64,000 bases of DNA from Narcine bancroftii (GCF_036971445.1 NC_091473.1:188852001-188916000); one strand, 5' to 3'. Positions 1 to 64,000 are shown, numbered from the stretch's first letter. Numbers and translations are program-made. The notes: generated by a model not told the origin, from the sequence alone.

Positions 1-795
1 AGATAGTCAGAATGGTTCAACGGTGGCTAGAAGATAGGTACCAGAGAATGTCGGTCAGGGTGAAGGCCAGTAATGAGCGATGTGCCTCACGGATCGGTGT
101 TGGGCCCCTTGATGTTCGTTATTTACATTAATGATTTGGATGATAGTGTGGTAAATGATGTTAGTAAATATGCTGACGATCCAAAGATAGGGTGAGTTGT
201 GGATAGTGAGGATGGTTTTCGGGAACTGCAGAAGGATTTGGACTGCTTAGAAGAGTGGGCTGAAACACGGAAGATGGAGTTTAATGTAGATAAGTGTGAA
301 GTGCTTCATGTTGGGAAGAATAATTAAAATAGGACGTATGCACTGAGGTGAAGGGTGTTGAGGTATACAGAGGAACAGAGATCTTGGAATAATGGTTCAT
401 CGTTCTTTGAAAGTGGAATCTCATGAAGTAGGCTTTTGGTCTGGTGACCTTTATACATCAAAGCATAGAATATAGGAGGCGGGAGATAATGTTGAGACTG
501 TTCAAGGCTTTTGTGAGGCCAAGATTGGAATATTGTGTGCAGTTTTGGTCTCCAAATTATAGGAAGGGTATTAATAAGGTAGAGAGGATGGCAGAGTGGA
601 ATGACCTTCCGGAGGTTGTGGTTGCAGCAGGGCCAATATTGTCAATTAAGTGGAGGTTCGATGAGTTCATGAATGTGAAGCGTTTGAAGGGTTATGGGCA
701 TGTGCAGGAAGGTGTGATTAGTAGAGTTCACTTAAATAATTGCGGACTAGAGTGGCTGAGATGGCCTGTTTCCGTTATGTAATTGTTATTATGTG
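1..795 (+). mobile_element. Decayed CR1 LINE, RT C-terminal half and 3' end (continues from the previous unit)
   Basis: FVIYINDLD, KYADD and RPRLEYCVQFWSP motifs with stops and frameshifts; CR1-type 3' end 'tggcctgtttccgttatgtaattgttattatg'. Confidence 0.9.
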
Positions 796-804
796 TAAAT
801 GTGC

Positions 805-915
805 TAATCCATTTTCCCCCACTCAGCCCCCCTGCTCGGGCCTCTCCTCATAACCTTTGATGTCCGGGCTAATCAAGAACCTATCAATCTCTGTCTTAAA
901 TAAACCCAATGATGT
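805..915 (-). mobile_element. Short antisense CR1 3' fragment
   Basis: 'cataacctttgatgtccgggctaatcaagaacctatcaatctctgtcttaaa' is the reverse complement of a CR1 ORF2 end (FKTEIDRFLI..IKGY). Confidence 0.65.
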
Positions 916-964
916 TATGATCATTGGATGGATGAGGAGAACGGACAAAGCAGTGACAAATGAA

Positions 965-1088
965 ATACAACATCTAAATGTCCGCCAGGCCAGGAAAACC
1001 CTTCGGGAGGCAGGTCTGTCAGTGACTATTGTCCGCAGAAGACTTCATGAACAGAAACGCAGAGGCTACATTGCAAGATGCCAATAGT
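965..1088 (+). mobile_element. Tc1 transposase fragment in the + orientation
   Basis: VRQARKTLREAGLSVTIVRRRLHEQKRRGYIARC resembles the second HTH region of Tc1 transposases. Confidence 0.7.
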
Positions 1089-1109
1089 TGTATGTTTTAT
1101 ATCTTGGGC

Positions 1110-1909
1110 AATTCCTTTACGTTTCCACACTTTGCACTTGCCCTCACTCTGACGCAGGTTAATCTTGGTCTCATCTGTCCACAAGACCATTTTACAGAAT
1201 TATTCAGCCTCTTTTAAATACTTCTTGGCGAACCGTAATCTGGCCTTCTTTTCTGCGACCAACTAGTGGTTTGCATCTTGCAGTGTTGTTCATGAGCCTT
1301 TCAACGGATAGTTGTCACCTGCCTCATGAAGGGTGTTTCTGATCTGTCGGATTAGCGTTTGGGGATTTTTCTTCCAGATGATGAGAATTTCCCTGTTATC
1401 ATTAGAGAGATCCTTCCTGATAATGCCAGTCCCTTTCTGATTACTGAGCTCACTAGGACGTTCCTTCTTAATAATAATATTCCATACGCTTGATTTCGGT
1501 AATCCTGACCGATGATTCTTACTGTTCTATTCCTGTTTTTCCACCTTATAATGGCTAATTTGTCATTCATTGGCAAAAAGCATGTTGAAAAATGGCACCT
1601 ACAGAATATAAAAGTTTAGAAGCCAGCCCAGCCCTCTTATACTTACACCAATGAAGCAATTAAACATACCTGAGTTCTCACAAACACCTGTGAAGCCAGA
1701 CATTCTGGCGCCCTGATACGAAGGGACCATGAATAAACAGGACTGTAATTTATACACGGTCAAACCAAAATCTATCTAAATAACTTTTAATGAAATCTGG
1801 AATGTGCACTTAAATTATATTTGAATTCTTTGAACACAAATTTCAAATTGTGGAGCGCAGTGGAAAAGAAAGAAATCTGTGCTTGTCCCAAACTCTATGG
1901 ATTGTGTTG
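1110..1909 (-). mobile_element. Decayed Tc1/mariner DNA transposon: left end plus 5' part of the transposase (copies at +12002, +28283, +40289, +52295)
   Basis: Minus strand has an N-terminal HTH remnant (PMNDKLAIIRWKNRNRTVR) and VLWTDETKINL (first Asp of the DDE triad) at about 1155-1190. A TIR-like end 'caacacaatccatagagtttgggacaa' lies near 1909. Confidence 0.8.
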
Positions 1910-2859
1910 CATTTGGATTGGAAACGCCCTGAGCTGACTCCGTCGGCTTCGAGAGTCCGGTTTGCGAATTAACTGAATAACCGAGGTGATCGGAAATTTC
2001 ACCGCGTTGACCAGATTCTCCCTGAACTTGGACTGAGTCAAGGCGTAAATAAAGGTGTTGGTGCAGCAACTTAAAGTCAACAGCAGCTGCCCCACCTGGA
2101 GAAATATGACTTCGGAGTCGTTGTGGTGATTGGGGTCCGCCCCGGCGGCTGTGTAGTAAAGGAAATGGACAACGTGCACCGACCACAACAGGATGAAGCT
2201 GCCGGAGATGGCGAAGAGTAAGATCATAGACCTCCGCCTGCTTTCCATCTCCGGGTCACTGCGGCTTCCTCCGCCTCTCTGACCCCTTAGCCCCCGACGG
2301 ATGCGACTGGAGAAGACAACGTGCCGCACCGTCAGAGCGTTGAACAACAAAATCAAAGCAAAAGGGATCAGCGGCATTATTAAGGTGTTCACCCAGTCAA
2401 AGGCCACCCAGCCAGGATCCGTGAAATAACTTGCCTTCTGCAAACAGAACCACGGGACGTTGTCAACCACTCTCAGGGGTTCATATGTGAAGTAGTAGGG
2501 AATCCTCTGTAAAGAGAGAAGAACGCTCGTCGTGGTCATCACGGCGGACGCGGTTTTCCCAGTGCAGAATTTCGTCTTCAGCTTCTGGAAGCAGATGGCG
2601 ACAAATCGATCGAAGGTGAAGGTGACGGTGAACCAGACGGAACAGCCGGTGACAACACGACCCAGGACTGAGATGAGGCTGCACACGGGGGTGATGTGAA
2701 GGAAAACGCCGGGGAAGTAATAATAACTGAACCGCCACAGGACGACATTGATGAGGATGATCAGTTGGTCCGCCGCTGCCATGGCCACCAGGTAGCGGGT
2801 GGTGCAGATGGAGAGTCCGCACCTTCCGCGGGACAGGACTGCAAGCGCCACTACATTCG
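1895..2859 (-). CDS. GPR139-like: GPR139/GPR142-like class A GPCR, exon 2 (copy 1); spliced product 343 aa
   Basis: Open 7TM frame: ANVVALAVLSRGRCGLS, YLVAMAAAD (TM2), CSVWFTVTFTFDRFVAIC (TM3, DRF), WFC (ECL2), PFALILLFNALTVRH (TM5), DPEMESRRRSMILLFAISGSFILLW (TM6), LSCCTNTFIYALTQSKFR (TM7/H8). Acceptor is a pyrimidine tract + AG (ttccatttccttcacag|CGAAT) at 2861-2860. Family-level call, not an orthologue call. Confidence 0.9.
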
Positions 2860-3359
2860 CTGTGAAGGAAATGGAAAGGACGATGAGATTTCGGGCCAAT
2901 TGCTCCTTCATTACACCTGCACAATGAAGATTTTGCTTCCTGAACACGTGTAGGTGTATTTCATGGAGTGTTGTGTTGGTGCTCATGAGAATCACCTTAA
3001 AATGTTCCTAATTCTTTCATTTCTCTCCATCCAGACGGAAGTAACCTTCGCTCACCCCTGCCCAGATTCTCCCTCTTTCCTGCTCCCTGTCTCCAACTAC
3101 TCAACTCACATTCCCCTGCAACTACCCTGCCCCTCACCATTATTCCTGTATAACTAGATGGAACCTATTTCTGTGATTTTCATATTTTGTCTACTTCAAA
3201 TATAACAAGGCCATTGACAATGGACAATACAACATACCGTTGGCAAATAATTTACTGCAGTCGCACTTGGTCTTCTTTTCTGCTGATCTGCGTTCAGTGA
3301 CGAACATAGTGCTTTTCCAACTTCCGACCTGATACATCAAATTTGAACTTACCATTGTT

Positions 3360-3461
3360 CAGTGGTTCCCAACCATTTCTTTCCACTCAGACACAACTTT
3401 AATTGTTCCCTCCGCCATCGGCGCTCTTTGATTAATAAGGGATTGCTTAAGGTGGTGTGTG
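3360..3461 (+). mobile_element. hAT/Charlie-like MITE fragment in the intron
   Basis: Starts with 'cagtggttcccaacc', a Charlie-type TIR; the right end is lost in the adjacent microsatellite. Confidence 0.55.
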
Positions 3462-3785
3462 TTTATTTATCTATCCATCCTTTTTTCTGTCTATCCATTT
3501 ATCCATTTATCTATCAATCGATCCATTTATCTCTCTATCCATTCACTTATTTATCTGTCTATCAGTCCAACCATTTANNNNNNNNNNNNNNNNNNNNNNN
3601 NNNNNNNNNNNNNNNNNNNNNNNNNNNNNNNNNNNNNNNNNNNNNNNNNNNNNNNNNNNNNNNNNNNNNNNNNNNNNNNNNNNNNNNNNNNNNNNNNNNN
3701 NNNNNNNNNNNNNNNNNNNNNNNNNNNNNNNNNNNNNNNNNNNNNNNNNNNNNNNNNNNNNNNNNNNNNNNNNNNNNNNNNNNNN
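3462..3785. repeat. Degenerate (TATC/CATC)n microsatellite followed by an N run (3578-3785; copies 15580-15791, 31861-32072, 43867-44078, 55873-56084)
   Basis: Visible tatc/ccat repeats. N runs of 208, 212, 212, 212 and 212 nt sit at the same unit position. Confidence 0.85.
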
Positions 3786-4435
3786 ATATTGAAACGTAAC
3801 AAATCCGACAGCCCGACATCACATCAACGGACTGAAGGAGCAGCGCTCATTGATATTATACACAATGTGTTCGAGGAAGCTGTGAGCAAAGTAATTTGTT
3901 TAAATAAAAACGACTGAACTCTCCAACACAAAGAACAACAGCGCTTTGAAAATCCTGTATCAACATCAGCAGCTCCCCCTGTTGACAGATACCACGCCAC
4001 TTGGTTTGACCATTGGCAAAAGATACTGCATCAGGACAGTAAACGATACGCTGCAGAGCGGACACCCGCGTCCTTCCCACCGTAACAGACGAAAGGGTTG
4101 ACACTTTGTTCTCTGCTCAGAATATTGGGCTTAATGGACGACAACTCCGAGAATCCATTATTTGTCCGTCTGCCAATATTTCCCGCACACCCTAGCATGT
4201 CACCAGGTCCCTCTCTCCGCTTTCCGCTTGAAGGGATCTGTTGGAAGCTTCCCACAATGGAGTGTAACGTGGTTCAAATAACAATATCAAAAAATGTGAA
4301 TAACCCGTCAGTCCTGTCTAATCAATGTTCAGAATCCGCACAGTGATATATTGATCAGTGCGCACCGTGAACCTGCGATGTCAAAACCTTCTGCCAGGCT
4401 CCTTTTAATTGTCGCTTTGAACGGAAACAGCAGAG

Positions 4436-4632
4436 AGAGGGCACGGTTGGCGCAACGCTTTCACAGCGCCAGAGATGGGGACCTGGGTTCCAATCCCGCT
4501 GTCTATTAGGAGTTTGGACGCTCTGTCCGTGTCACTTTTCCCCGGGGGGTTCCTGTGTCTTCCCACAGGTGGTGTCGGTCAATTGGGTAGCATGGGCTGG
4601 TGGGCCGAAATGGCCCGTTCCCGTGCCTAAAT
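4436..4632 (+). mobile_element. tRNA-derived SINE (HE1/V-SINE-like) with CR1-like tail, in the intron
   Basis: Head 'ggcacggttggcgcaacgctttcacagcgccagag...cctgggttccaatccc' has A/B-box-like motifs. Core 'ggagtttggacgctctgtccgtgtc...ttttccccggggggttcc'; tail 'gggccgaaatggcccgtt' resembles the CR1 3' ends in the unit. Confidence 0.7.
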
Positions 4633-4773
4633 TGAACAAGCGCAAAGGGAGTGAAGGAAAGGTTCCTCCGGGTTCTCGTGTGCCAAGAACCATCATCCCG
4701 GAGACGGCATTATTTAAAAAATCAACTAAAAACTCACGCACAACTGTAAAGTTGAGGCAGTCACTGTTCTTAC

Positions 4774-4840
4774 CAGGAACTCCAAGAAGAGCAATGAAGA
4801 TATAAACAATTCTTATGAAACGGTAAAACGCGCTGAGCAT
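4774..4840 (-). CDS. GPR139-like: GPR139-like GPCR, exon 1 (copy 1): MLSAFYRFIRIVYIFIALLGVP
   Basis: ATG at 4840, then a hydrophobic first half of TM1 and donor CCTG|GTAAG at 4773. The phase-1 join G+CG gives Ala and restores ...LLGVPANVVAL, with the conserved TM1 Asn. Confidence 0.88.
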
Positions 4841-4911
4841 GTTCTGTGAGCATCAACCTGTCTTCCAGCTTCAGCCAATCTCTCTGAAGTCAAGGCATCG
4901 CACGCCCAATA

Positions 4912-4918
4912 ATTTATA
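4912..4918 (-). promoter_or_regulatory. Candidate TATA box of the GPCR gene (present in all five gene copies)
   Basis: Minus strand reads GGTATAAATT about 72 nt upstream of the exon 1 ATG, in non-TE sequence between the ATG and the next CR1. Confidence 0.5.
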
Positions 4919-5004
4919 CCTGCGGATTCTTTGCGGCTCCAAGGTCATTGAAACGTTATGGCTCAATATAGATGGAAAAATGAAAACACATTACGTTATT
5001 TGAG

Positions 5005-5935
5005 TCAGGTTCCAAGGATCTGCACTGGGTCTGTTGTTGTTTGTTATATACATCAATGATCTTGAGATGATGGGGTAGAAAATTGGAATAGTAATTAGGC
5101 GGATGATACTTTGTGCATAATGAAGAAGGTTTTTAAATATTGCAGAGAGATTTGGGTCAGTGAGAAGAGTGGGCTGAAAGTTGGGAAATAGGGTTCAATG
5201 TGCAAGTGGAACAAGTCGGACTAATCACAATAGGACCCACATGGGCCAAATGGTGGGGCGTGAAAGAATGCAATTGAACAAAGAGATCTAGGAATAGTGG
5301 TGCACAGTTCCCTGAAGGTGGATAGGGTAGTGAAGAATGCTGTTCTTTAGAAATCTGAGCACAGAGGGAAAGGTTTGGGAGGGAATGTTAAAATTGTACA
5401 AGGCATTGGTGAGACTACAATTGGAATATTGTGTTCCGTTCTGCTCACCAAATTACAGGAAGGATATGAACAGAATTATCTGTGGGTTTCAGCACCCAGT
5501 TACAGAGAATGTTTAAACCAGTTAGGGCTTTATTCCTTAGAGTGTAGAAGGCTGAGAGGTGGGGGGTGGGGGTATATTATCAAATTGAAAGTTAAGGTGG
5601 ATCGATAGAGTAGATGTGGATGGACGTTGTCCATTGAGTAGAGGAGAGATTCAAACCAGAGGACATGAGCTGAGAGTTTATGGGGGCAAAAGTTTAGGTG
5701 CAACACAAGTGGGAGTTTCTATACTCGGAGAGCGGAGACTGTGTGTAATGAGTTTCCAGTGGATACAGGTACAATACTATCTTTAAAGAAAAAATTGGTT
5801 AGGTGTATTGATGGCAAAGGTTTGGAGGGTTATGGGCAGAGAGCAGATCATTGGGACGAGCAGAATTTAAGAGTTACAGCACATACAAGATGGGCCATAA
5901 ATGGCCTGTTTCCTCGCTGTAATTGTCATATGGTT
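5005..5935 (+). mobile_element. Decayed 5'-truncated CR1 LINE
   Basis: VPRGSxLG-like and FVIYINDL motifs, 'ttggaatattgtgt', LGLYSLE; 3' end 'tggcctgtttcctcgctgtaattgtcatatgg'. Confidence 0.85.
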
Positions 5936-6172
5936 ATCCGGTCATTACAGTTCTGGGCCAGAATAGACAAGTGCAATCCTAGAAACCAAGGAAGCGCGGC
6001 ATTGTTAAACCCTCTGGGGCCAACCTCTGCCTATTTGACGTTGTTCATTGCTCTGCTCTTTTAATTTTGTCAACGAAGTTTCGACATTTCACTTTTCTCA
6101 CCAGGATTTCCCTTTGACTAATGGTCTCAATTAGAGATCGGTTTTAATAGAAAGGATTAACATCTTGATAGG

Positions 6173-6455
6173 TGTGGTGATACACCACTAGCCTATTACA
6201 GGGGGCGACCTGTGTACCTGTAGCAAGAGCACAGGAAAACATGATAGCACCTGGCCGGCTGTCAATCAGACGACCTGAATAGTCCAAGCCCCACCGTCGG
6301 CTGCCAATCATCCTCTGGAAAATAAGCCACATCCATCCCCTCGTGGGCAGCCACTGGGGGCTAAAGCTAACTGCAGCAGGGACTTTAAGTGGAATAAAGC
6401 CTGTTAAGCAGTCTTTAAGTATTGTTTCGGCTTTTCTGTCCGACAGCGTGCCACA
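6173..6455 (+). mobile_element. Solo LTR, 283 bp (copies 18179-18461, 34460-34742, 46466-46748, 58472-58754)
   Basis: TGTGG...CCACA termini, AATAAA near 6393, and flanking 5-mers atagg/atacg (TSD with one mismatch). Confidence 0.75.
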
Positions 6456-6689
6456 ATACGTCAGCTCATTTCCTACGTCAGCTCATTTCTTATACACCAA
6501 TCTTCTGAAGGAACTGGAACACTTAAACACCTGCAGATCCCAAAATAATGCAAATGGTAAAAGCAGATGAGAAGGATGAAGTCACCAGCAGAACGAGCCG
6601 GCTCAAATCAACACCGGGTTCACGCTGAAAAGAAGCAAATGCCTCACATAATCGATATGCCGGTTCGATGCAGCATACAGACACATATA

Positions 6690-6980
6690 TTTACCAGCTG
6701 GAGAGATGGGCTGCCAAATGGCAGGTGGAAGTGCGGACAAGTGCAAGCAGTTGCACTTTGGGAGCACTGATCAAATTAGGACATAACACTGCCAAAAGTT
6801 GTTCACTGAAGAGGGAACACATGGATCTGGGAACACAAATTCCTGGATCGGGGGTTAAGGGGTGCTTTGGTATCTTTGCCTTCAAATAGCAAAGTATGCA
6901 GTCTAGGAATTGGGAGGTTATGGTAAAGTTGTAGAAGATACTTGTGAGGGCAATGTTAGAGTGTGGCTCCTTCAATTTGC
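6690..6980 (+). mobile_element. Decayed CR1 fragment
   Basis: QLERWAAKWQVE and 'gcactttggg...gggaggttatggtaaagttgtagaagatacttgtgagggcaatgttagagtg' match CR1 ORF2 post-RT sequence. Confidence 0.7.
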
Positions 6981-7449
6981 AGGTGGACGCAGCCTGGGAG
7001 TGCTTGAGGGCATTTGCAACACTCTTATTTGGATATTTTACTTTTTAAACAAACCTTGTAATTTGTTGAACATTCATGAAACCTACAGAGTCTGTATTTA
7101 TCCCTCATCTTCGTACAAGTGGAAGTACCATCAATTAAATCACCTCGACAGCGAGATAAATCACGCCCCATATATTCCCCCTGCTTTCCCATCTCCCAAT
7201 TTATTTTTACCCTCTCCTCCCACCTACCTCCCCGAGCAGCAATAACCAAGCTCTTGGCGCCAACCAACCCCCACCCCCATCATTTTCAGAAGGGCCTAAT
7301 GAACGCATCTCCTACTTATATCTCCCTCCCTTCACTTGAAATCCTTGTATTCATTCTTACTCTCTAATATGCATTCTTCATTAAACATTTACATGATGAA
7401 AAAACCACATATATCCCACTTCATATTCCTCACAATTACAATAGTTACA

Positions 7450-7880
7450 GTACTTTTTAAAAACATTTTATTTAAAATTTAAAATCACTTAACATAACAT
7501 TAGGTACTACATATTAATACAGACATTATGTGATTAATTTTTTTATATATAAACCCCTCTCCCAACCACCTCACTAATACCCTCCCTCCTCCCTTCCCCA
7601 CCTACAAAGAGTAAGATCATCTTCTACTACAATTACATTTAAACATTTCGGCTGCAGGAATGGTGGCACCGATCAGAGCGGACTGAGAGTTTAGATTCTA
7701 ACACCAATAGTTTTCAAATAAGGGTTCCAAATTTTTGTAAAGAAAAAAATATTGATCTCTTAAATTATATGTAATCGATTCTGAAGAAATACAGGCTTTC
7801 AGTTCGTAATGACATCCTATCAACCTAAAACCGAGTCAGAGTTCCTTGTAATAGCTAAACGCTTCTTAGAAACCACCAGA
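7450..7880 (-). mobile_element. L1-clade LINE 3' end, decayed
   Basis: Minus strand has KKRLAITRNSDS and ITYNLR..FFTKIWNPYL remnants, a G-rich 3' UTR and a poly(A) signal (tttatt on the + strand). Confidence 0.6.
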
Positions 7881-7899
7881 GGCAAAACGTAAAATTTCC

Positions 7900-8965
7900 C
7901 AAACCGTATGTTCATAAATCAAGAATGAAATGGGAATCAGATTTCGATATAAGCATTGATGAAAGGGTTTGCAGAAATTTTTGCAAAGATAATATGACTA
8001 AGGTAATAAATGTACGTTATAGATTAGTGCAGTACAATTTTTACATCAATTGCATTTGATTATGTATAACGCGAAATTTTCAGCTTAGTTCTTCAGATTT
8101 GTTTTTTTAAACTTTATTTGATATTTTTCAATAAGAATAAACAGACGTTTACAGAATAATTAATCTAATAATTATAAAACAATAAAACTAACCCACCCTC
8201 ACCCTCCTCCCACAACAGATCCCTCAAGGGAAGCATTAAAGATAAACAAAAACATTCAGTAATTTACAATATTACTAAATTCATATTCTTTATATAAGGT
8301 GTCCACAGCTTAACAAAAATTCATAATTATCATGTAAATTGTATGTTATTTTCTCCATATAAATACACGATTTCAACACATGCCATTGAGTTAAATTTAA
8401 CTGCGCTTCATCTTTCCAAGACATGCCAATACATTCACGAGCAACTGTCAATGTTAGACCAATAAACACTGTCTGAAACTTATCCAACCCCAATTCCACT
8501 AACGGAATAAAAGAGCTGAACAAAAAAAATTTGGATCTAAAGGAAAATGAATATTAAACAAATTTAGAAGAAAAATCTTAATTTTAAACCAGAAAAGAAT
8601 GAACTTTATCACAAAACCAAACAGAAGGTAGAAATGTTCCAATACATAATCCACACCTAAAACACAGATATGAATTACTGTCCATATTTTTAATCAATAT
8701 TACAGGGGTTAAATATAACTGATATGAAAAATTAGAATTAACCATACTATGTCTTACATTAATTTATTTAGTCAACCCATTATAACACATATTTTCAAAT
8801 TAGTTCTTCAGATTATGTTTTAGATGTGACCCAGAAGTGGGTACTTTTTTTCATTCGGCGTGGACCTGTCGTAAGATTAAAAGTTTTTGGCTGCAAATTA
8901 AATCGTGTTTGGAACACATATTAAAAAGTAAATTTACTTTTGGATCCAGTGTTGTTTTAATTAGT
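7900..8965 (+). mobile_element. L1-clade ORF2 C-terminal (zf-RVT) fragment, split by the nested insertion at 8100-8799
   Basis: Left piece reads INVRYRLVQYNFLHQL; right piece reads CFRCDPEVGTFFHSAWTCRKIKSFWLQI. Confidence 0.65.
8100..8799 (-). mobile_element. 5'-truncated L1-clade insertion with a 15-bp TSD
   Basis: ORF 8290-8523 reads LTVARECIGMSWK...MEKITYNL. Poly(A) tail and signal at 8102-8118; TSD ttagttcttcagatt at 8085-8099 and 8800-8814. Confidence 0.75.
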
Positions 8966-9525
8966 TGAGGCCAAGTTTGGAATATTGCGTGTGATTCTGA
9001 CCTCAAAATTATAGGAAGAATATCCGTAAGATTGAGACGGTTCAAAGAGGGTTTACGAAAATGTTTCCTGGATTGCAGTATCTAGAATATGGGGAAAGAT
9101 TGAGTAGACTAGGACTTTATTCATTGGAGCATAGAAGGTTGAGGTGGATTTGATAGAGGTATAGAAAATGATAAAGGGGATAGATAGAGTAGATGTGAAT
9201 ATGCTCTTTCCCCTGAGGATAGGGGAGATTGGAACCAGGGGACATGTAAAGGATTAGGGGCCAAAACCTTAGGTGTTATATCAGAAGATGCTTCTTCACT
9301 CAGAGAGTGGTGGCTGAGTGGAATGACCTTATGGAACAGGTAGTTGCAGCAGGGTCAATTCTGTCATTTAAAAGGTTAGATGAGTACATGGATGTGAGGA
9401 GGTTGGAGGGTTATGGGCCGGGAGAGGGTAGGTGGAACTAGAGGAGTTTCACGTAAATCGCAGCGGATTAGAAGGGCCGATATGGCCTGTTTCCGAACTG
9501 TAAATTGTTATAGAGTTATATTAAA
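8965..9525 (+). mobile_element. CR1 LINE 3' fragment
   Basis: RPSLEYCV, RLSRLGLYSLE, FFTQRVVAEWNDL; end 'tggcctgtttccgaactgtaaattgttatag'. Confidence 0.88.
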
Positions 9526-9747
9526 TTGATAGCTTTAAGATTGAGATTGACCATGTACCAAATTGAATAGTTACATACCCCCGTTTTTCACCTTATTTAC
9601 ATTTAATCCCGAAGCGGTGGCAAGGCTCTTAAAAAATCCACGGTCTCCCTTGGATCCTTTAAAAAAATTATTTCCCTCGCGCCCTTGCCATCTTCAGAGT
9701 AGTTGGGTGAAGGAGGGTAAACTCGATTCCATTTTGTTTAAAACTCT

Positions 9748-10157
9748 TGTTAGCCGGGTCAGATTTCGTCCCGCGTTTCCATAGCGCCGTGTAGAGACAT
9801 TTACAACACCCTTGGCCCATTAGACTACATGTGCACCCACGGCCAGCAAGCAGAGTCCAATACTATCCGATTCTAAAGTGCCACTGCTCGCATGGCAACC
9901 ATTTCCAGCAGACAGCTGTTTCATAAGTTTGGAACCCGTTAGCTGTGTCATGGGCCAGCGGTTGCGAAACTAAGCGAGGAGGATGAGTTCTTTCGGTGCC
10001 TCTTCGGTTCCGCAGAAGAGAATCATAATGACTTGCACACGTGTAGGAATTCCACGTTGGGTTGTGCACCTCCCAGGACGAGCCAAGTGGTCCTGCAATT
10101 GCTGCATGTGGTGGGTGGAGGGGACAACATATCCAAGGTAGCATGACCCTGCTAACA
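9748..10157. mobile_element. 410-bp element bounded by 14-bp terminal inverted repeats (MITE or solo LTR, unclassified)
   Basis: TGTTAGCCGGGTCA (9748-9761) versus TGACCCTGCTAACA (10144-10157): 13/14 inverted match with TG..CA ends. No clear TSD. Confidence 0.55.
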
Positions 10158-10384
10158 ACCAGAGGGAAGCCTTATTATCCCAATTGGAATAAGCTCCCGT
10201 TTATAGGCTGTCACTTTAAACGAAGGAACACTTGGGTTCAGCGGGAATCAAGGTATCGTCGCCTAACACAGGTTCAGAGATTTCACACCAAATCGAATTG
10301 ATCAACGGCGATGGTGGCGATGGTGGCGATGGTTGAACAACGCGGCAACTGAAAAACCTCCTTCCTGATGACGTCATGTTAATC

Positions 10385-10900
10385 AGTTTGCGGAGATCAG
10401 GACGACACCAGAAACATTGGCATATTTCTACAGTTCTGTTGGGGGGCGGGTGTGGAATGTTATGACCGGCTGTATCACGATGTGGTCTGACTACACCAAT
10501 ACCCCTGAGCGCAAAACCCTCCAAAAGGTAGTGGGCACAACCCAGGACATCACAGGCAAAACCCTCCCCACAGTCGCGAACATTTTCAGGGAACACTGCC
10601 TTCGGAGAGCAGCAGCAAGGATCCACACCACCCAGCACATGCTCTGTTCTCCCTCTGCCATCAGGAAAGAGATGTAGGTGCCATAACACTCAAATCACCA
10701 GGTTCTGGAACAGCTGCTACGCCTCCACCATCAGACTCCTCACCGAAAAACTCAATGAGGGACTCATTTACGGACTCTTACATTTGCATTTTATTGATTT
10801 GTTGCCTCTCCCTATTGCAGTCAGTTTGTTTACATATCTTAACTTGTTTACGTTGAGTATGTATTGATTACAGTGGAAAGTCTGCCTGGATCGCAGGAGA
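10385..10900 (+). mobile_element. Rex1/Babar-like LINE 3' fragment
   Basis: MTGCITMW..ERKTLQKVVGTTQDITGKTLPTV; after a frameshift KDPHHPAHALFS and TRFWNSCYASTIRLL. Confidence 0.75.
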
Positions 10901-10989
10901 ACCAACCTCAGGGTTGAGTTTAGGAATACACATGACGTATGGCCCAGGAAATGGACATTTTAAAGAATTTTAGCAGATGTAATAATATA

Positions 10990-16779: not shown

Positions 16780-16846
16780 CAGGAACTCCAAGAAGAGCAA
16801 TGAAGATATAAACAATTCTTATGAAACGGTAAAACGCGCTGAGCAT
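16780..16846 (-). CDS. GPR139-like: GPR139-like GPCR, exon 1 (copy 2)
   Basis: Identical to copy 1 exon 1; GTAAG donor. Confidence 0.88.
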
Positions 16847-39100: not shown

Positions 39101-39276
39101 ATTGCAGTCAGTTTGTTTACATATCTTAACTTGTTTACGTTGAGTATGTATTGATTACAGTGGAAAGTCTGCCTGGATCGCAGGAGAACCAACCTCAGGG
39201 TTGAGTTTAGGAATACACATGACGTATGGCCCAGGAAATGGACATTTTAAAGAATTTTAGCAGATGTAATAATATA

Positions 39277-45066: not shown

Positions 45067-45133
45067 CAGGAACTCCAAGAAGAGCAATGAAGATATAAAC
45101 AATTCTTATGAAACGGTAAAACGCGCTGAGCAT
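45067..45133 (-). CDS. GPR139-like: GPR139-like GPCR, exon 1 (copy 4)
   Basis: Identical to copy 1 exon 1. Confidence 0.88.
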
Positions 45134-51100: not shown

Positions 51101-51282
51101 CTCCCTATTGCAGTCAGTTTGTTTACATATCTTAACTTGTTTACGTTGAGTATGTATTGATTACAGTGGAAAGTCTGCCTGGATCGCAGGAGAACCAACC
51201 TCAGGGTTGAGTTTAGGAATACACATGACGTATGGCCCAGGAAATGGACATTTTAAAGAATTTTAGCAGATGTAATAATATA

Positions 51283-53090: not shown

Positions 53091-54189
53091 TAAATGTGCT
53101 AATCCATTTTCCCCCACTCAGCCCCCCTGCTCGGGCCTCTCCTCATAACCTTTGATGTCCGGGCTAATCAAGAACCTATCAATCTCTGTCTTAAATAAAC
53201 CCAATGATGTTATGATCATTGGATGGATGAGGAGAACGGACAAAGCAGTGACAAATGAAATACAACATCTAAATGTCCGCCAGGCCAGGAAAACCCTTCG
53301 GGAGGCAGGTCTGTCAGTGACTATTGTCCGCAGAAGACTTCATGAACAGAAACGCAGAGGCTACATTGCAAGATGCCAATAGTTGTATGTTTTATATCTT
53401 GGGCAATTCCTTTACGTTTCCACACTTTGCACTTGCCCTCACTCTGACGCAGGTTAATCTTGGTCTCATCTGTCCACAAGACCATTTTACAGAATTATTC
53501 AGCCTCTTTTAAATACTTCTTGGCGAACCGTAATCTGGCCTTCTTTTCTGCGACCAACTAGTGGTTTGCATCTTGCAGTGTTGTTCATGAGCCTTTCAAC
53601 GGATAGTTGTCACCTGCCTCATGAAGGGTGTTTCTGATCTGTCGGATTAGCGTTTGGGGATTTTTCTTCCAGATGATGAGAATTTCCCTGTTATCATTAG
53701 AGAGATCCTTCCTGATAATGCCAGTCCCTTTCTGATTACTGAGCTCACTAGGACGTTCCTTCTTAATAATAATATTCCATACGCTTGATTTCGGTAATCC
53801 TGACCGATGATTCTTACTGTTTTATTCCTGTTTTTCCACCTTATAATGGCTAATTTGTCATTCATTGGCAAAAAGCATGTTGAAAAATGGCACCTACAGA
53901 ATATAAAAGTTTAGAAGCCAGCCCAGCCCTCTTATACTTACACCAATGAAGCAATTAAACATACCTGAGTTCTCACAAACACCTGTGAAGCCAGACATTC
54001 TGGCGCCCTGATACGAAGGGACCATGAATAAACAGGACTGTAATTTATACACGGTCAAACCAAAATCTATCTAAATAACTTTTAATGAAATCTGGAATGT
54101 GCACTTAAATTATATTTGAATTCTTTGAACACAAATTTCAAATTGTGGAGCGCAGTGGAAAAGAAAGAAATCTGTGCTTGTCCCAAACT

Positions 54190-55154
54190 CTATGGATTGT
54201 GTTGCATTTGGATTGGAAACGCCCTGAGCTGACTCCGTCGGCTTCGAGAGTCCGGTTTGCGAATTAACTGAATAACCGAGGTGATCGGAAATTTCACCGC
54301 GTTGACCAGATTCTCCCTGAACTTGGACTGAGTCAAGGCGTAAATAAAGGTGTTGGTGCAGCAACTTAAAGTCAACAGCAGCTGCCCCACCTGGAGAAAT
54401 ATGACTTCGGAGTCGTTGTGGTGATTGGGGTCCGCCCCGGCGGCTGTGTAGTAAAGGAAATGGACAACGTGCACCGACCACAACAGGATGAAGCTGCCGG
54501 AGATGGCGAAGAGTAAGATCATAGACCTCCGCCTGCTTTCCATCTCCGGGTCACTGCGGCTTCCTCCGCCTCTCTGACCCCTTAGCCCCCGACGGATGCG
54601 ACTGGAGAAGACAACGTGCCGCACCGTCAGAGCGTTGAACAACAAAATCAAAGCAAAAGGGATCAGCGGCATTATTAAGGTGTTCACCCAGTCAAAGGCC
54701 ACCCAGCCAGGATCCGTGAAATAACTTGCCTTCTGCAAACAGAACCACGGGACGTTGTCAACCACTCTCAGGGGTTCATATGTGAAGTAGTAGGGAATCC
54801 TCTGTAAAGAGAGAAGAACGCTCGTCGTGGTCATCACGGCGGACGCGGTTTTCCCAGTGCAGAATTTCGTCTTCAGCTTCTGGAAGCAGATGGCGACAAA
54901 TCGATCGAAGGTGAAGGTGACGGTGAACCAGACGGAACAGCCGGTGACAACACGACCCAGGACTGAGATGAGGCTGCACACGGGGGTGATGTGAAGGAAA
55001 ACGCCGGGGAAGTAATAATAACTGAACCGCCACAGGACGACATTGATGAGGATGATCAGTTGGTCCGCCGCTGCCATGGCCACCAGGTAGCGGGTGGTGC
55101 AGATGGAGAGTCCGCACCTTCCGCGGGACAGGACTGCAAGCGCCACTACATTCG
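54190..55154 (-). CDS. GPR139-like: GPR139-like GPCR, exon 2 (copy 5)
   Basis: Translation identical to copy 1. Confidence 0.9.
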
Positions 55155-57072
55155 CTGTGAAGGAAATGGAAAGGACGATGAGATTTCGGGCCAATTGCTC
55201 CTTCATTACACCTGCACAATGAAGATTTTGCTTCCTGAACACGTGTAGGTGTATTTCATGGAGTGTTGTGTTGGTGCTCATGAGAATCACCTTAAAATGT
55301 TCCTAATTCTTTCATTTCTCTCCATCCAGACGGAAGTAACCTTCGCTCACCCCTGCCCAGATTCTCCCTCTTTCCTGCTCCCTGTCTCCAACTACTCAAC
55401 TCACATTCCCCTGCAACTACCCTGCCCCTCACCATTATTCCTGTATAACTAGATGGAACCTATTTCTGTGATTTTCATATTTTGTCTACTTCAAATATAA
55501 CAAGGCCATTGACAATGGACAATACAACATACCGTTGGCAAATAATTTACTGCAGTCGCACTTGGTCTTCTTTTCTGCTGATCTGCGTTCAGTGACGAAC
55601 ATAGTGCTTTTCCAACTTCCGACCTGATACATCAAATTTGAACTTACCATTGTTCAGTGGTTCCCAACCATTTCTTTCCACTCAGACACAACTTTAATTG
55701 TTCCCTCCGCCATCGGCGCTCTTTGATTAATAAGGGATTGCTTAAGGTGGTGTGTGTTTATTTATCTATCCATCCTTTTTTCTGTCTATCCATTTATCCA
55801 TTTATCTATCAATCGATCCATTTATCTCTCTATCCATTCACTTATTTATCTGTCTATCAGTCCAACCATTTANNNNNNNNNNNNNNNNNNNNNNNNNNNN
55901 NNNNNNNNNNNNNNNNNNNNNNNNNNNNNNNNNNNNNNNNNNNNNNNNNNNNNNNNNNNNNNNNNNNNNNNNNNNNNNNNNNNNNNNNNNNNNNNNNNNN
56001 NNNNNNNNNNNNNNNNNNNNNNNNNNNNNNNNNNNNNNNNNNNNNNNNNNNNNNNNNNNNNNNNNNNNNNNNNNNNNNNNNNNNATATTGAAACGTAACA
56101 AATCCGACAGCCCGACATCACATCAACGGACTGAAGGAGCAGCGCTCATTGATATTATACACAATGTGTTCGAGGAAGCTGTGAGCAAAGTAATTTGTTT
56201 AAATAAAAACGACTGAACTCTCCAACACAAAGAACAACAGCGCTTTGAAAATCCTGTATCAACATCAGCAGCTCCCCCTGTTGACAGATACCACGCCACT
56301 TGGTTTGACCATTGGCAAAAGATACTGCATCAGGACAGTAAACGATACGCTGCAGAGCGGACACCCGCGTCCTTCCCACCGTAACAGACGAAAGGGTTGA
56401 CACTTTGTTCTCTGCTCAGAATATTGGGCTTAATGGACGACAACTCCGAGAATCCATTATTTGTCCGTCTGCCAATATTTCCCGCACACCCTAGCATGTC
56501 ACCAGGTCCCTCTCTCCGCTTTCCGCTTGAAGGGATCTGTTGGAAGCTTCCCACAATGGAGTGTAACGTGGTTCAAATAACAATATCAAAAAATGTGAAT
56601 AACCCGTCAGTCCTGTCTAATCAATGTTCAGAATCCGCACAGTGATATATTGATCAGTGCGCACCGTGAACCTGCGATGTCAAAACCTTCTGCCAGGCTC
56701 CTTTTAATTGTCGCTTTGAACGGAAACAGCAGAGAGAGGGCACGGTTGGCGCAACGCTTTCACAGCGCCAGAGATGGGGACCTGGGTTCCAATCCCGCTG
56801 TCTATTAGGAGTTTGGACGCTCTGTCCGTGTCACTTTTCCCCGGGGGGTTCCTGTGTCTTCCCACAGGTGGTGTCGGTCAATTGGGTAGCATGGGCTGGT
56901 GGGCCGAAATGGCCCGTTCCCGTGCCTAAATTGAACAAGCGCAAAGGGAGTGAAGGAAAGGTTCCTCCGGGTTCTCGTGTGCCAAGAACCATCATCCCGG
57001 AGACGGCATTATTTAAAAAATCAACTAAAAACTCACGCACAACTGTAAAGTTGAGGCAGTCACTGTTCTTAC

Positions 57073-57139
57073 CAGGAACTCCAAGAAGAGCAATGAAGAT
57101 ATAAACAATTCTTATGAAACGGTAAAACGCGCTGAGCAT
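57073..57139 (-). CDS. GPR139-like: GPR139-like GPCR, exon 1 (copy 5)
   Basis: Identical to copy 1 exon 1. Confidence 0.88.
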
Positions 57140-60100
57140 GTTCTGTGAGCATCAACCTGTCTTCCAGCTTCAGCCAATCTCTCTGAAGTCAAGGCATCGC
57201 ACGCCCAATAATTTATACCTGCGGATTCTTTGCGGCTCCAAGGTCATTGAAACGTTATGGCTCAATATAGATGGAAAAATGAAAACACATTACGTTATTT
57301 GAGTCAGGTTCCAAGGATCTGCACTGGGTCTGTTGTTGTTTGTTATATACATCAATGATCTTGAGATGATGGGGTAGAAAATTGGAATAGTAATTAGGCG
57401 GATGATACTTTGTGCATAATGAAGAAGGTTTTTAAATATTGCAGAGAGATTTGGGTCAGTGAGAAGAGTGGGCTGAAAGTTGGGAAATAGGGTTCAATGT
57501 GCAAGTGGAACAAGTCGGACTAATCACAATAGGACCCACATGGGCCAAATGGTGGGGCGTGAAAGAATGCAATTGAACAAAGAGATCTAGGAATAGTGGT
57601 GCACAGTTCCCTGAAGGTGGATAGGGTAGTGAAGAATGCTGTTCTTTAGAAATCTGAGCACAGAGGGAAAGGTTTGGGAGGGAATGTTAAAATTGTACAA
57701 GGCATTGGTGAGACTACAATTGGAATATTGTGTTCCGTTCTGCTCACCAAATTACAGGAAGGATATGAACAGAATTATCTGTGGGTTTCAGCACCCAGTT
57801 ACAGAGAATGTTTAAACCAGTTAGGGCTTTATTCCTTAGAGTGTAGAAGGCTGAGAGGTGGGGGGTGGGGGTATATTATCAAATTGAAAGTTAAGGTGGA
57901 TCGATAGAGTAGATGTGGATGGACGTTGTCCATTGAGTAGAGGAGAGATTCAAACCAGAGGACATGAGCTGAGAGTTTATGGGGGCAAAAGTTTAGGTGC
58001 AACACAAGTGGGAGTTTCTATACTCGGAGAGCGGAGACTGTGTGTAATGAGTTTCCAGTGGATACAGGTACAATACTATCTTTAAAGAAAAAATTGGTTA
58101 GGTGTATTGATGGCAAAGGTTTGGAGGGTTATGGGCAGAGAGCAGATCATTGGGACGAGCAGAATTTAAGAGTTACAGCACATACAAGATGGGCCATAAA
58201 TGGCCTGTTTCCTCGCTGTAATTGTCATATGGTTATCCGGTCATTACAGTTCTGGGCCAGAATAGACAAGTGCAATCCTAGAAACCAAGGAAGCGCGGCA
58301 TTGTTAAACCCTCTGGGGCCAACCTCTGCCTATTTGACGTTGTTCATTGCTCTGCTCTTTTAATTTTGTCAACGAAGTTTCGACATTTCACTTTTCTCAC
58401 CAGGATTTCCCTTTGACTAATGGTCTCAATTAGAGATCGGTTTTAATAGAAAGGATTAACATCTTGATAGGTGTGGTGATACACCACTAGCCTATTACAG
58501 GGGGCGACCTGTGTACCTGTAGCAAGAGCACAGGAAAACATGATAGCACCTGGCCGGCTGTCAATCAGACGACCTGAATAGTCCAAGCCCCACCGTCGGC
58601 TGCCAATCATCCTCTGGAAAATAAGCCACATCCATCCCCTCGTGGGCAGCCACTGGGGGCTAAAGCTAACTGCAGCAGGGACTTTAAGTGGAATAAAGCC
58701 TGTTAAGCAGTCTTTAAGTATTGTTTCGGCTTTTCTGTCCGACAGCGTGCCACAATACGTCAGCTCATTTCCTACGTCAGCTCATTTCTTATACACCAAT
58801 CTTCTGAAGGAACTGGAACACTTAAACACCTGCAGATCCCAAAATAATGCAAATGGTAAAAGCAGATGAGAAGGATGAAGTCACCAGCAGAACGAGCCGG
58901 CTCAAATCAACACCGGGTTCACGCTGAAAAGAAGCAAATGCCTCACATAATCGATATGCCGGTTCGATGCAGCATACAGACACATATATTTACCAGCTGG
59001 AGAGATGGGCTGCCAAATGGCAGGTGGAAGTGCGGACAAGTGCAAGCAGTTGCACTTTGGGAGCACTGATCAAATTAGGACATAACACTGCCAAAAGTTG
59101 TTCACTGAAGAGGGAACACATGGATCTGGGAACACAAATTCCTGGATCGGGGGTTAAGGGGTGCTTTGGTATCTTTGCCTTCAAATAGCAAAGTATGCAG
59201 TCTAGGAATTGGGAGGTTATGGTAAAGTTGTAGAAGATACTTGTGAGGGCAATGTTAGAGTGTGGCTCCTTCAATTTGCAGGTGGACGCAGCCTGGGAGT
59301 GCTTGAGGGCATTTGCAACACTCTTATTTGGATATTTTACTTTTTAAACAAACCTTGTAATTTGTTGAACATTCATGAAACCTACAGAGTCTGTATTTAT
59401 CCCTCATCTTCGTACAAGTGGAAGTACCATCAATTAAATCACCTCGACAGCGAGATAAATCACGCCCCATATATTCCCCCTGCTTTCCCATCTCCCAATT
59501 TATTTTTACCCTCTCCTCCCACCTACCTCCCCGAGCAGCAATAACCAAGCTCTTGGCGCCAACCAACCCCCACCCCCATCATTTTCAGAAGGGCCTAATG
59601 AACGCATCTCCTACTTATATCTCCCTCCCTTCACTTGAAATCCTTGTATTCATTCTTACTCTCTAATATGCATTCTTCATTAAACATTTACATGATGAAA
59701 AAACCACATATATCCCACTTCATATTCCTCACAATTACAATAGTTACAGTACTTTTTAAAAACATTTTATTTAAAATTTAAAATCACTTAACATAACATT
59801 AGGTACTACATATTAATACAGACATTATGTGATTAATTTTTTTATATATAAACCCCTCTCCCAACCACCTCACTAATACCCTCCCTCCTCCCTTCCCCAC
59901 CTACAAAGAGTAAGATCATCTTCTACTACAATTACATTTAAACATTTCGGCTGCAGGAATGGTGGCACCGATCAGAGCGGACTGAGAGTTTAGATTCTAA
60001 CACCAATAGTTTTCAAATAAGGGTTCCAAATTTTTGTAAAGAAAAAAATATTGATCTCTTAAATTATATGTAATCGATTCTGAAGAAATACAGGCTTTCA

Positions 60101-63100
60101 GTTCGTAATGACATCCTATCAACCTAAAACCGAGTCAGAGTTCCTTGTAATAGCTAAACGCTTCTTAGAAACCACCAGAGGCAAAACGTAAAATTTCCCA
60201 AACCGTATGTTCATAAATCAAGAATGAAATGGGAATCAGATTTCGATATAAGCATTGATGAAAGGGTTTGCAGAAATTTTTGCAAAGATAATATGACTAA
60301 GGTAATAAATGTACGTTATAGATTAGTGCAGTACAATTTTTACATCAATTGCATTTGATTATGTATAACGCGAAATTTTCAGCTTAGTTCTTCAGATTTG
60401 TTTTTTTAAACTTTATTTGATATTTTTCAATAAGAATAAACAGACGTTTACAGAATAATTAATCTAATAATTATAAAACAATAAAACTAACCCACCCTCA
60501 CCCTCCTCCCACAACAGATCCCTCAAGGGAAGCATTAAAGATAAACAAAAACATTCAGTAATTTACAATATTACTAAATTCATATTCTTTATATAAGGTG
60601 TCCACAGCTTAACAAAAATTCATAATTATCATGTAAATTGTATGTTATTTTCTCCATATAAATACACGATTTCAACACATGCCATTGAGTTAAATTTAAC
60701 TGCGCTTCATCTTTCCAAGACATGCCAATACATTCACGAGCAACTGTCAATGTTAGACCAATAAACACTGTCTGAAACTTATCCAACCCCAATTCCACTA
60801 ACGGAATAAAAGAGCTGAACAAAAAAAATTTGGATCTAAAGGAAAATGAATATTAAACAAATTTAGAAGAAAAATCTTAATTTTAAACCAGAAAAGAATG
60901 AACTTTATCACAAAACCAAACAGAAGGTAGAAATGTTCCAATACATAATCCACACCTAAAACACAGATATGAATTACTGTCCATATTTTTAATCAATATT
61001 ACAGGGGTTAAATATAACTGATATGAAAAATTAGAATTAACCATACTATGTCTTACATTAATTTATTTAGTCAACCCATTATAACACATATTTTCAAATT
61101 AGTTCTTCAGATTATGTTTTAGATGTGACCCAGAAGTGGGTACTTTTTTTCATTCGGCGTGGACCTGTCGTAAGATTAAAAGTTTTTGGCTGCAAATTAA
61201 ATCGTGTTTGGAACACATATTAAAAAGTAAATTTACTTTTGGATCCAGTGTTGTTTTAATTAGTTGAGGCCAAGTTTGGAATATTGCGTGTGATTCTGAC
61301 CTCAAAATTATAGGAAGAATATCCGTAAGATTGAGACGGTTCAAAGAGGGTTTACGAAAATGTTTCCTGGATTGCAGTATCTAGAATATGGGGAAAGATT
61401 GAGTAGACTAGGACTTTATTCATTGGAGCATAGAAGGTTGAGGTGGATTTGATAGAGGTATAGAAAATGATAAAGGGGATAGATAGAGTAGATGTGAATA
61501 TGCTCTTTCCCCTGAGGATAGGGGAGATTGGAACCAGGGGACATGTAAAGGATTAGGGGCCAAAACCTTAGGTGTTATATCAGAAGAAGCTTCTTCACTC
61601 AGAGAGTGGTGGCTGAGTGGAATGACCTTATGGAACAGGTAGTTGCAGCAGGGTCAATTCTGTCATTTAAAAGGTTAGATGAGTACATGGATGTGAGGAG
61701 GTTGGAGGGTTATGGGCCGGGAGAGGGTAGGTGGAACTAGAGGAGTTTCACGTAAATCGCAGCGGATTAGAAGGGCCGATATGGCCTGTTTCCGAACTGT
61801 AAATTGTTATAGAGTTATATTAAATTGATAGCTTTAAGATTGAGATTGACCATGTACCAAATTGAATAGTTACATACCCCCGTTTTTCACCTTATTTACA
61901 TTTAATCCCGAAGCGGTGGCAAGGCTCTTAAAAAATCCACGGTCTCCCTTGGATCCTTTAAAAAAATTATTTCCCTCGCGCCCTTGCCATCTTCAGAGTA
62001 GTTGGGTGAAGGAGGGTAAACTCGATTCCATTTTGTTTAAAACTCTTGTTAGCCGGGTCAGATTTCGTCCCGCGTTTCCATAGCGCCGTGTAGAGACATT
62101 TACAACACCCTTGGCCCATTAGACTACATGTGCACCCACGGCCAGCAAGCAGAGTCCAATACTATCCGATTCTAAAGTGCCACTGCTCGCATGGCAACCA
62201 TTTCCAGCAGACAGCTGTTTCATAAGTTTGGAACCCGTTAGCTGTGTCATGGGCCAGCGGTTGCGAAACTAAGCGAGGAGGATGAGTTCTTTCGGTGCCT
62301 CTTCGGTTCCGCAGAAGAGAATCATAATGACTTGCACACGTGTAGGAATTCCACGTTGGGTTGTGCACCTCCCAGGACGAGCCAAGTGGTCCTGCAATTG
62401 CTGCATGTGGTGGGTGGAGGGGACAACATATCCAAGGTAGCATGACCCTGCTAACAACCAGAGGGAAGCCTTATTATCCCAATTGGAATAAGCTCCCGTT
62501 TATAGGCTGTCACTTTAAACGAAGGAACACTTGGGTTCAGCGGGAATCAAGGTATCGTCGCCTAACACAGGTTCAGAGATTTCACACCAAATCGAATTGA
62601 TCAACGGCGATGGTGGCGATGGTGGCGATGGTTGAACAACGCGGCAACTGAAAAACCTCCTTCCTGATGACGTCATGTTAATCAGTTTGCGGAGATCAGG
62701 ACGACACCAGAAACATTGGCATATTTCTACAGTTCTGTTGGGGGGCGGGTGAGGAATGTTATGACCGGCTGTATCACGATGTGGTCTGACTACACCAATA
62801 CCCCTGAGCGCAAAACCCTCCAAAAGGTAGTGGGCACAACCCAGGACATCACAGGCAAAACCCTCCCCACAGTCGCGAACATTTTCAGGGAACACTGCCT
62901 TCGGAGAGCAGCAGCAAGGATCCACACCACCCAGCACATGCTCTGTTCTCCCTCTGCCATCAGGAAAGAGATGTAGGTGCCATAACACTCAAATCACCAG
63001 GTTCTGGAACAGCTGCTACGCCTCCACCATCAGACTCCTCACCGAAAAACTCAATGAGGGACTCATTTACGGACTCTTACATTTGCATTTTATTGATTTG

Positions 63101-63288
63101 TTGCCTCTCCCTATTGCAGTCAGTTTGTTTACATATCTTAACTTGTTTACGTTGAGTATGTATTGATTACAGTGGAAAGTCTGCCTGGATCGCAGGAGAA
63201 CCAACCTCAGGGTTGAGTTTAGGAATACACATGACGTATGGCCCAGGAAATGGACATTTTAAAGAATTTTAGCAGATGTAATAATATA

Positions 63289-64000
63289 AAAATAGTGAGC
63301 ACTTCACATCCAATGATCATGGTACCATTATAATTATGGAGAGGGACGACGATGAAGGCCTTTGACTTGGGGAAAGCAAAATTTGATAAAATGGGAAGAG
63401 ATTTTCAGTGAGTGATTTGGACATATTTGATTTATATGAAGGAGGTAGAGGAGAATTGCAGGTAATTTACAGGTGATATATTGAGGGTGCAGAATCTTTA
63501 TGTTCCTGTTGGGATAAAAGGCAGAGACAAATGTTAGAGAGAGCCGTGGTTTTCAAGGGAGATTATGAAGTTGGTTCGAGATTAAAGGGAGGCCTACATT
63601 AAATACAGGAAGCAAGGTGTGGAGGAGATGCTTGGAAAATACATTGATTGAAAAAAGAAGCCTATGAAAGAAATTAGGACAGAAAATGTAAGGTACGAGG
63701 TGGCTATATTGAAGAGCGTGAAAGTAAATCCGAAGGGCCTTTATAAATATGTGAATAATAAAAGGAGAGTGAAGGATAGAAATGGTCCACTAGAGCATCA
63801 GAGCGGACATATGTGTGAGGAGGCAAATGAGACGGGGGTGATATTGAATGAGTTCTTCTCGTCGGTATTTACAAGAGAAAAAGATATGGAATTGTCTAGC
63901 ATAGGTGACGCAAAAAGGGTTTTTATGGAAAACAGTGGGATTAGGAAAGAGCGGGTGTTGGAACTTTTAAGGCATATGAAGGTTGACAAGTCTCCAGGTG
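63289..64000 (+). mobile_element. Long decayed CR1 copy, cut by the window end
   Basis: Same sequence as 10990-11701. Confidence 0.85.

Follow-up and report, generated by a model that had tools for sequence, protein, structure and literature searches.

A tandem array of hybrid receptor genes in the ray Narcine bancroftii, likely formed by unequal crossing-over between neighbouring paralogues

The assembly of the ray Narcine bancroftii contains a 12-kb block with one orphan receptor gene that is repeated about seven times, nearly identically and head-to-tail. From sequence comparison, we regard the array as probably a real, young and finite tandem amplification of a hybrid gene, likely to have arisen by recent unequal crossing-over between two neighbouring paralogues, X and Y.

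Structure of the array

The homogeneous tract measures 89 kb as assembled (C11:188,830,755-188,919,575). Our window, the whole stretch of 64,000 nucleotides that was analysed, lies inside it, and the original prediction, made from the window, was right that the array exceeds both window ends: a search of the own genome together with 400 kb of flank placed the array limits 21.2 kb to the left and 3.6 kb to the right of the window, with paralogue X (96%) as the left boundary. The tract holds seven exon-2 copies with identities of 99.9-100%. Five complete two-exon 7TM genes are present in the window, in agreement with the at least five near-identical tandem gene copies that had been predicted, and the all-versus-all comparison suggested at that time, done as a self-comparison of the window, returned head-to-tail units with identities of 99.85-99.99% over 11.5-11.8 kb. 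The predicted period of 12,002-12,006 bp was found in three gene-to-gene spacings (12,002, 12,006 and 12,006), but it is broken at 23,539-23,738, which had been missed; the spacing across this break is 16,281. No further copies with 99-100% identity were found on other contigs among the candidates scored (40 of 316 and 40 of 670). The main features of the window are:

1..23538, no strand: left contig part with the end of unit U0, A1 and partial A2; extends a further 21.2 kb beyond the left window end, to X
1895..4840, minus strand: hybrid GPCR copy 1, 343 aa (exon 1 4,774-4,840; exon 2 1,895-2,859)
4900..13890, no strand: spacer of one unit, consisting of promoter region and decayed interspersed repeats, with a fragment of a LINE-type reverse transcriptase at 11,750-12,130
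13897..16846, minus strand: hybrid GPCR copy 2 (exon 1 16,780-16,846; exon 2 13,897-14,861)
19488..27819, no strand: doubled overlap flanking the break (unit positions 3,697-7,752 twice), likely redundant contig ends
23539..23738, no strand: 200-N break, most likely a scaffold gap; the unit phase jumps back by 4.06 kb, with ~2% indel noise on the right
23739..64000, no strand: right contig part with partial B1, B2, B3 and most of B4; ends 3.6 kb right of the window, in the Y intron
30178..33127, minus strand: hybrid GPCR copy 3 (exon 1 33,061-33,127; exon 2 30,178-31,142)
42184..45133, minus strand: hybrid GPCR copy 4, with His114 (the paralogue-X allele) in place of Gln
54190..57139, minus strand: hybrid GPCR copy 5

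The gene model consists of a coding exon 1 of 67 nt, a GT-AG intron of 1,914-1,918 bp and an exon 2 of 965 nt, and encodes 343 aa; all seven near-identical coding sequences have this two-exon structure and are intact over 343 aa, and five of them are whole within the window. The G+C content of the unit ranges from 21 to 53% in 500-bp bins. The spacer had been described as ~9 kb of dead TEs per unit. Decayed repeats are indeed present, with 65-85% identity to other copies, but the figure of ~9 kb is borne out only in part: 44% of the unit has at least three short diverged matches in 600 kb of fetched loci, and only one of 76 six-frame spacer fragments has a TE domain (RVT_1). For 74 of the 76 fragments there was no Pfam match at E<=0.05, and a sub-threshold PASTA match of one fragment was rejected as chance. 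The contrast between these decayed repeats and the near-identity of the units themselves supports the original claim that the amplification is far younger than the content of the unit.

At the break, the sequence stops at unit position 7,752 on the left and resumes at 3,697 on the right, so that 4.06 kb are doubled; over its initial ~3.7 kb, the right side has 80 differences, mostly 1-bp indels. Two more exact 200-N runs are found further left, at 99 and 132 kb from the window. We infer that the break is a scaffold gap where the ends of two contigs overlap. Because this gap and the noisy 4-kb overlap lie in the middle of the array, the assembled copy number is not fixed, and because the break falls exactly where the units have no distinguishing variants, the array may have six, seven or more units. 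Once the overlap is discounted, seven periods are counted between X and Y (X, six hybrids and Y) with the gap mid-array. About seven copies are thus assembled with a gap inside, next to a contig depth of 4-7 times that of other loci, which is an uncalibrated value.

Array edges and parentage of the inner copies

Both edges of the array lie within one and the same short tract of the gene:

14727..15276, no strand: 550-bp exchange tract with no differences among X, Y and the units; 135 bp lie in exon 2 and 415 bp in the intron

Paralogue X diverges from the unit until position 10,941 and is identical from there on, while paralogue Y is identical to the unit up to position 11,491 and different after it; X and Y diverge from each other by ~4-5%. 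Within the 550-bp tract, 13-27 differences per 200 bp are found in paralogues W, Z1 and Z2, and the identity of the tract is therefore more than mere conservation; at 2-5% divergence, all 550 bases would be identical by chance with a probability of at most 1.5e-5.

The inner copies combine the two neighbours. In 200-bp bins across ~4.3 kb of intron and upstream sequence, X has two mismatches to the unit in all, and Y has 2-17 per bin; in exon 2 this is reversed. Over the 2-kb promoter, the unit is 99.9% identical to X and 95.2% to Y, and over exon 2 and the 3' flank it is 99.9% identical to Y and 96.0% to X. Each inner copy is thus the promoter, exon 1 and 5' intron of X joined to exon 2 of Y, a switch of parental alleles. 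At the protein level, the inner copies are identical to Y, with one copy differing at one residue, and the X protein differs from the unit/Y protein at 15 residues.

In PMC3449122, NAHR or unequal crossing-over between tandem paralogues is described as yielding chimeric duplicates, with homologous breakpoints in a tract of perfect identity of ~300 bp or more. The tract found here has 550 bp, and X and Y are in direct orientation, the gene at either array edge being on the minus strand. The position of both edges at one 550-bp spot of two paralogues, together with the hybrid inner copies, is therefore a signature of unequal crossing-over.

A first crossover within the shared tract of X and Y would have created the first hybrid, and the 12-kb units, by then identical, are likely to have multiplied by further unequal exchanges when misaligned. 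The few differences between units may come from short conversion tracts or from pre-existing alleles. If undisturbed, the array would likely age into a tandem cluster with 93-97% identity, as found on C27, or lose copies. The copy number is predicted to vary among chromosomes or individuals and, judged from the promoter sequences, the hybrids would put extra doses of receptor Y under the regulatory DNA of X.

Hybrid-gene products of unequal crossing-over are known from the human L/M opsin array, from anti-Lepore globin and from CYP2D6-2D7, and by analogy the ray array may work like the opsin or CYP2D6 hybrid arrays. Direct paralogues, homologous breakpoints in a long identical tract, a hybrid gene and few tandem copies are common to the array and to the NAHR hybrid duplicates described in PMC3449122. 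There are also differences: the ray hybrid protein equals that of parent Y, the swapped DNA being regulatory and intronic only, and the ray array has about six hybrids in a row and encodes an orphan receptor.

The receptor and its family

By sequence, the receptor is a class A (rhodopsin) GPCR: it matches Pfam 7tm_1 (PF00001) with 73.3 bits over profile positions 2-260 of 260 and has both a DRF (DRY-like) and an NTFIY (NPxxY-like) motif. An identical protein of Narcine bancroftii is annotated as 'probable G-protein coupled receptor 139' in the source databases, and the best match among solved structures is human GPR139 (PDB 7vug, E 3e-7). Both proteins are class A 7TM receptors with motifs of TM2, TM3 and TM7 in common, and NCBI gives the gene the name 'probable GPR139'. 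However, identity to human GPR139 is ~25% (67 identical positions, counted by eye in the alignment), and of the six residues listed for the GPR139 ligand pocket in PMC8807744 (E108, F109, H187, W241, R244, N271), W241 alone is kept; the other five are replaced, by G89, R90, N180, H251 and Q280, respectively. The ray receptor has an additional cysteine pair, Cys82 and Cys161, predicted to form the TM3-ECL2 disulfide, and the alignment shows none at these positions in GPR139. Given the low identity and the one in six pocket residues, the receptor does not qualify as an orthologue of GPR139, and the original label 'GPR139-like' stands for no more than a distant resemblance. GPR139 itself is characterised by activation by L-Trp/L-Phe, Gq coupling and habenula expression. 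Cluster Atlas neighbours of the receptor are GPR139-named, FMRFamide receptor-like and Srw clusters.

Homology places the receptor in a chondrichthyan multi-copy family named 'probable GPR139': 1,981 protein relatives were found at E<=1e-20, and the 120 listed all have shark or ray names, 115 of them from outside this cluster at 47-65% identity. In the genome of this ray the family has at least 118 loci (118 scored of 2,003 candidates); these are spread over many contigs, and stops are frequent among them. Around the array, the cluster contains paralogues with 87-94% protein identity and less closely related members of the family, as well as a tandem segmental duplication of 118 kb at ~98%, and the duplications within the cluster are nested, with identities of ~88%, 94-97% and 99.9%. 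Young duplicates of the family are also present elsewhere: seven of seven pairs, picked by equal scores in the family-locus search, are 99.5-99.95% identical over ~8 kb, and there is one young set of five copies with stop codons in its gene. C27 has a four-gene tandem with a period of 8.4-8.8 kb and 93-97% identity, which is an aged version of the same process. Thus, of the two possibilities offered originally, the snapshot of an expanding GPR139-like family is the one that the nested duplications and the other young duplicates favour, and unequal recombination of neighbours is an ordinary growth mode for this large shark-and-ray receptor family.

The dN/dS values among older paralogues are 0.16-0.56, and these members of the family are, as judged from sequence, under purifying selection; the value of 0.77 for X versus Y is based on 19 changes and is barely informative on constraint in the newest pair.

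No description of a GPR139-like expansion in sharks or rays was found among the literature titles and abstracts listed, although subscription papers and genome-paper supplements may contain one. A review of GPR139 lacks the strings shark, cartilaginous, duplicat- and paralog-, and a survey of vertebrate GPCRs names related orphan 'GPR210' subtypes in fishes without mention of sharks. A comparable expansion is that of the FMRFamide-receptor-like GPCRs of Lymnaea, with ~450 genes in tandem groups (PMC11589774). Like the ray family, with its FMRFamide receptor-like and Srw neighbours in the Atlas, it is a large, clustered family of orphan rhodopsin-type receptors; the ray family differs in belonging to a vertebrate lineage, and the likeness drawn here is one of size, clustering and receptor type.

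Authenticity, alternative explanations and significance

The six units compared (five full-length and B4 up to the edge) have six distinct substitution patterns, with a mean of 3.8 substitutions per pair or 3.2e-4 per base. U-1 and U0, the two leftmost units, share four markers: two substitutions, a 4-bp shorter intron and a two-copy state of the following repeat:

10307..10333, plus strand: 9-bp repeat, a marker of unit lineage; three copies in A1-B4, two copies in U-1, U0 and the older paralogous interval

Six of the ten substitution sites in the six units match alleles of gene X or of the older W-X paralogous interval. As the variants are common to neighbouring units and match paralogue alleles, they are not read errors, and as a diploid single locus permits two haplotypes, six unit haplotypes argue against a false duplication. 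Between A1 and the clean part of B1 there are no substitution differences. Dating the array by a molecular clock from the value of 3.2e-4 was rejected, because most unit differences are alleles shared with paralogues; the sole yardsticks for this value, pi = 0.002 and 7e-10 per generation, are from another species (PMC10587355).

Read depth was taken from contigs derived from reads rather than from raw or long reads, with contigs of other loci rather than the unique flank as baseline. On the 24 long read-derived contigs listed (three runs of one sample, possibly the assembled animal), the depth of the unit is 32-51; joint contigs of other loci have median depths of 6.7 (run X1, 14 values) and 9.5 (run X4, 12 values), among the 15 of 70 listed. 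The ratio of unit to other loci is thus ~7 for X1 and ~4 for X4, in one sample, and is uncalibrated and not a copy number. Paralogues contribute 0-1.9 loci to the words of the unit contigs. The raised depth argues against a false duplication and also against tens of copies: a summed depth equal to a single copy, named originally as the result that would overturn the array, was not observed, with the reservation that the ratio is uncalibrated. Among the read-derived contigs, which are assembled contigs of one sample, none spans two units.

The contigs from reads retain the two-copy 9-mer and a C allele, both minority states in the assembly, which suggests that the assembly lacks some units; those of run X4 also have a G allele, a combination absent from every assembled unit. 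If contig building favours the better-covered path, some units lie beyond those assembled, whether on the homologous chromosome, within the gap or in a different individual. An amplified chromosome paired with an ancestral one would be compatible with this.

A second, near-identical organism (organism B, one run) has no differences to the unit over five contigs (2,225 bp) with depths of 4.6-10. Its contigs take the paralogue alleles wherever paralogues compete, and they are shorter than the X-Y arrangement. Organism B appears unamplified in this one run.

Macrosatellites typically comprise several to hundreds of units, with a number that is highly polymorphic from one individual to the next and with heterochromatin or methylation that depends on it. 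Loosely, the array is a macrosatellite by unit size and arrangement, since the definition in PMC5687341 is a head-to-tail repeat with units of several kb, and the units here have 12 kb. In PMC5687341 and PMC3599962, the sizes of gene-bearing macrosatellites are 4.7 kb with 20-103 copies for RS447, 6.1 kb with 5-82 copies for RNU2, 3.4 kb with 10-98 copies for TAF11-like and 4.8 kb with 4-17 copies for CT47. With these and with D4Z4, the ray array has in common the near-identical multi-kb head-to-tail units, each with a single gene as well as old TEs and a microsatellite, and its ~7 copies are inside the range of CT47. It differs in its larger unit, its ~42% G+C, its position in a cluster of its own paralogues, its gene-internal edges and its apparent absence from the near-identical organism B.

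We consider it improbable that the array is a long-lived macrosatellite with tens of units hidden in the gap and kept uniform by concerted evolution like RNU2 or D4Z4. The gap does lie in the most uniform part of the array, B2 and B3 have single paralogue alleles suggestive of short conversion tracts, and the unit size is within the definition given above; but the depth is ~4-7 times that of other-locus contigs and not tens, the candidates scored yielded no other copies at 99-100%, and the edges are sharp. Concerted evolution would show as an array in several species, homogenised within each, and the near-identical organism B, a weak comparison with its one run, apparently has no amplification at all. 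The initial framing as a long macrosatellite under concerted evolution therefore finds no support: with sharp gene-internal edges, ~7 units and an apparently unamplified organism B, youth explains the homogeneity. Even less probable, and in our view hardly credible, is that the array is mostly an artefact of assembly, in which haplotype mixing or a looped contig turned one or two real copies into many. The gap, the redundant 4-kb overlap and the error-rich contig ends inside the array would be in line with this, and as A1 equals the clean part of B1 in substitutions, one unit was possibly counted twice; against it stand the six unit haplotypes where two are allowed, their variants common to neighbours and matching paralogues, the raised read depth and the fact that each contig alone has at least three units counted from its unique flank.

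Selection for the amplification, with more receptor Y, or Y in the tissue of X, being adaptive in the ray, is also unlikely, if somewhat less so than the two preceding explanations. The seven near-identical coding sequences are intact, the hybrids exchange regulatory DNA and the family is under purifying selection; yet intact frames are expected without selection at a divergence of 3e-4, and equally young duplicates elsewhere, including the set of five copies with stop codons, indicate that a high duplication rate suffices. The high duplication rate of the family explains the array without selection.

The mechanism that we favour, unequal crossing-over between X and Y, is textbook, and taken by itself the array is modest news; it is valuable as a clean snapshot, as one locus displays three rounds of duplication (~88%, 94-97% and 99.9%), along with a promoter swap and a crossover tract that can be mapped. 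For annotation, it is a reminder that the automatic name GPR139 masks a divergent family and that gene counts at such arrays hinge on how a gap was closed. The mechanism is known and the family poorly described; the family is the more interesting lead. The array points to a receptor family of more than 100 members in this ray, with many in other sharks and rays. As a tentative and rather doubtful extension, sharks and rays may carry a large undescribed receptor repertoire, mis-named GPR139 and with a turnover like that of chemosensory or immune genes, and the array may be a birth event that is still segregating, with one receptor present about sixfold under the promoter of its sister. If so, it would offer a natural dosage and promoter-swap allele for finding the tissue and the ligand class of the family.

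The receptor gene and single-base differences between units

The gene considered here is the second copy in the array of near-identical 12-kb units:
13,897-16,846 of the window, minus strand, hybrid GPCR gene copy 2, two exons

Exon 1 encodes most of the predicted TM1, the N-terminal tail of the receptor is nearly absent, and the exon layout is common to all paralogues checked (14/14). At window positions 42,874 and 51,053, in units B2 and B3, single bases correspond to the allele of gene X, the paralogue at the left edge of the array, or of the older paralogous W-X interval; at the adjacent sites where the paralogues differ, 19-36 bp off, there is no such match. The single-base matches are either alleles of long standing or the product of gene conversion over very short tracts.

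The right flank of the array

Immediately to the right of gene Y, the right-edge paralogue, lies a copy of exon 1 and promoter with ~89% identity (L010, C11:188,928,110-188,932,266, on the contig of the window); no exon 2 matching this orphan exon 1 was found. C11:188.94-189.17 Mb (L011-L034) is a ~118-kb tandem segmental duplication of 96-99% identity that includes several family genes, one of which has a stop in one duplicate and none in its twin.

Other family copies and clusters in the genome

Another family member is present at C11:220.3-221.6 Mb (L052-L056) in at least five copies, spaced 210-310 kb from one another, with 99.5-99.9% identity across 8 kb. Two stop codons interrupt this gene, and a copy with equal score is found on the small contig C230. 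Contig C5 has duplicated family genes (L057-L060) at 101.56/101.66 Mb (99.95%) and 91.56/92.30 Mb (99.8%), with more equal-scoring copies close by and on C258.

Contig C27 has seven family genes at 83,365,000-83,417,000 (L046-L051; spacing 6-12 kb, 86-96% identity), some with stops, and an 8.4-8.8 kb tandem of four family genes with 93-97% identity at 73,915,000-73,948,000 (L041-L044), which is an aged analogue of the 12-kb array in the window.
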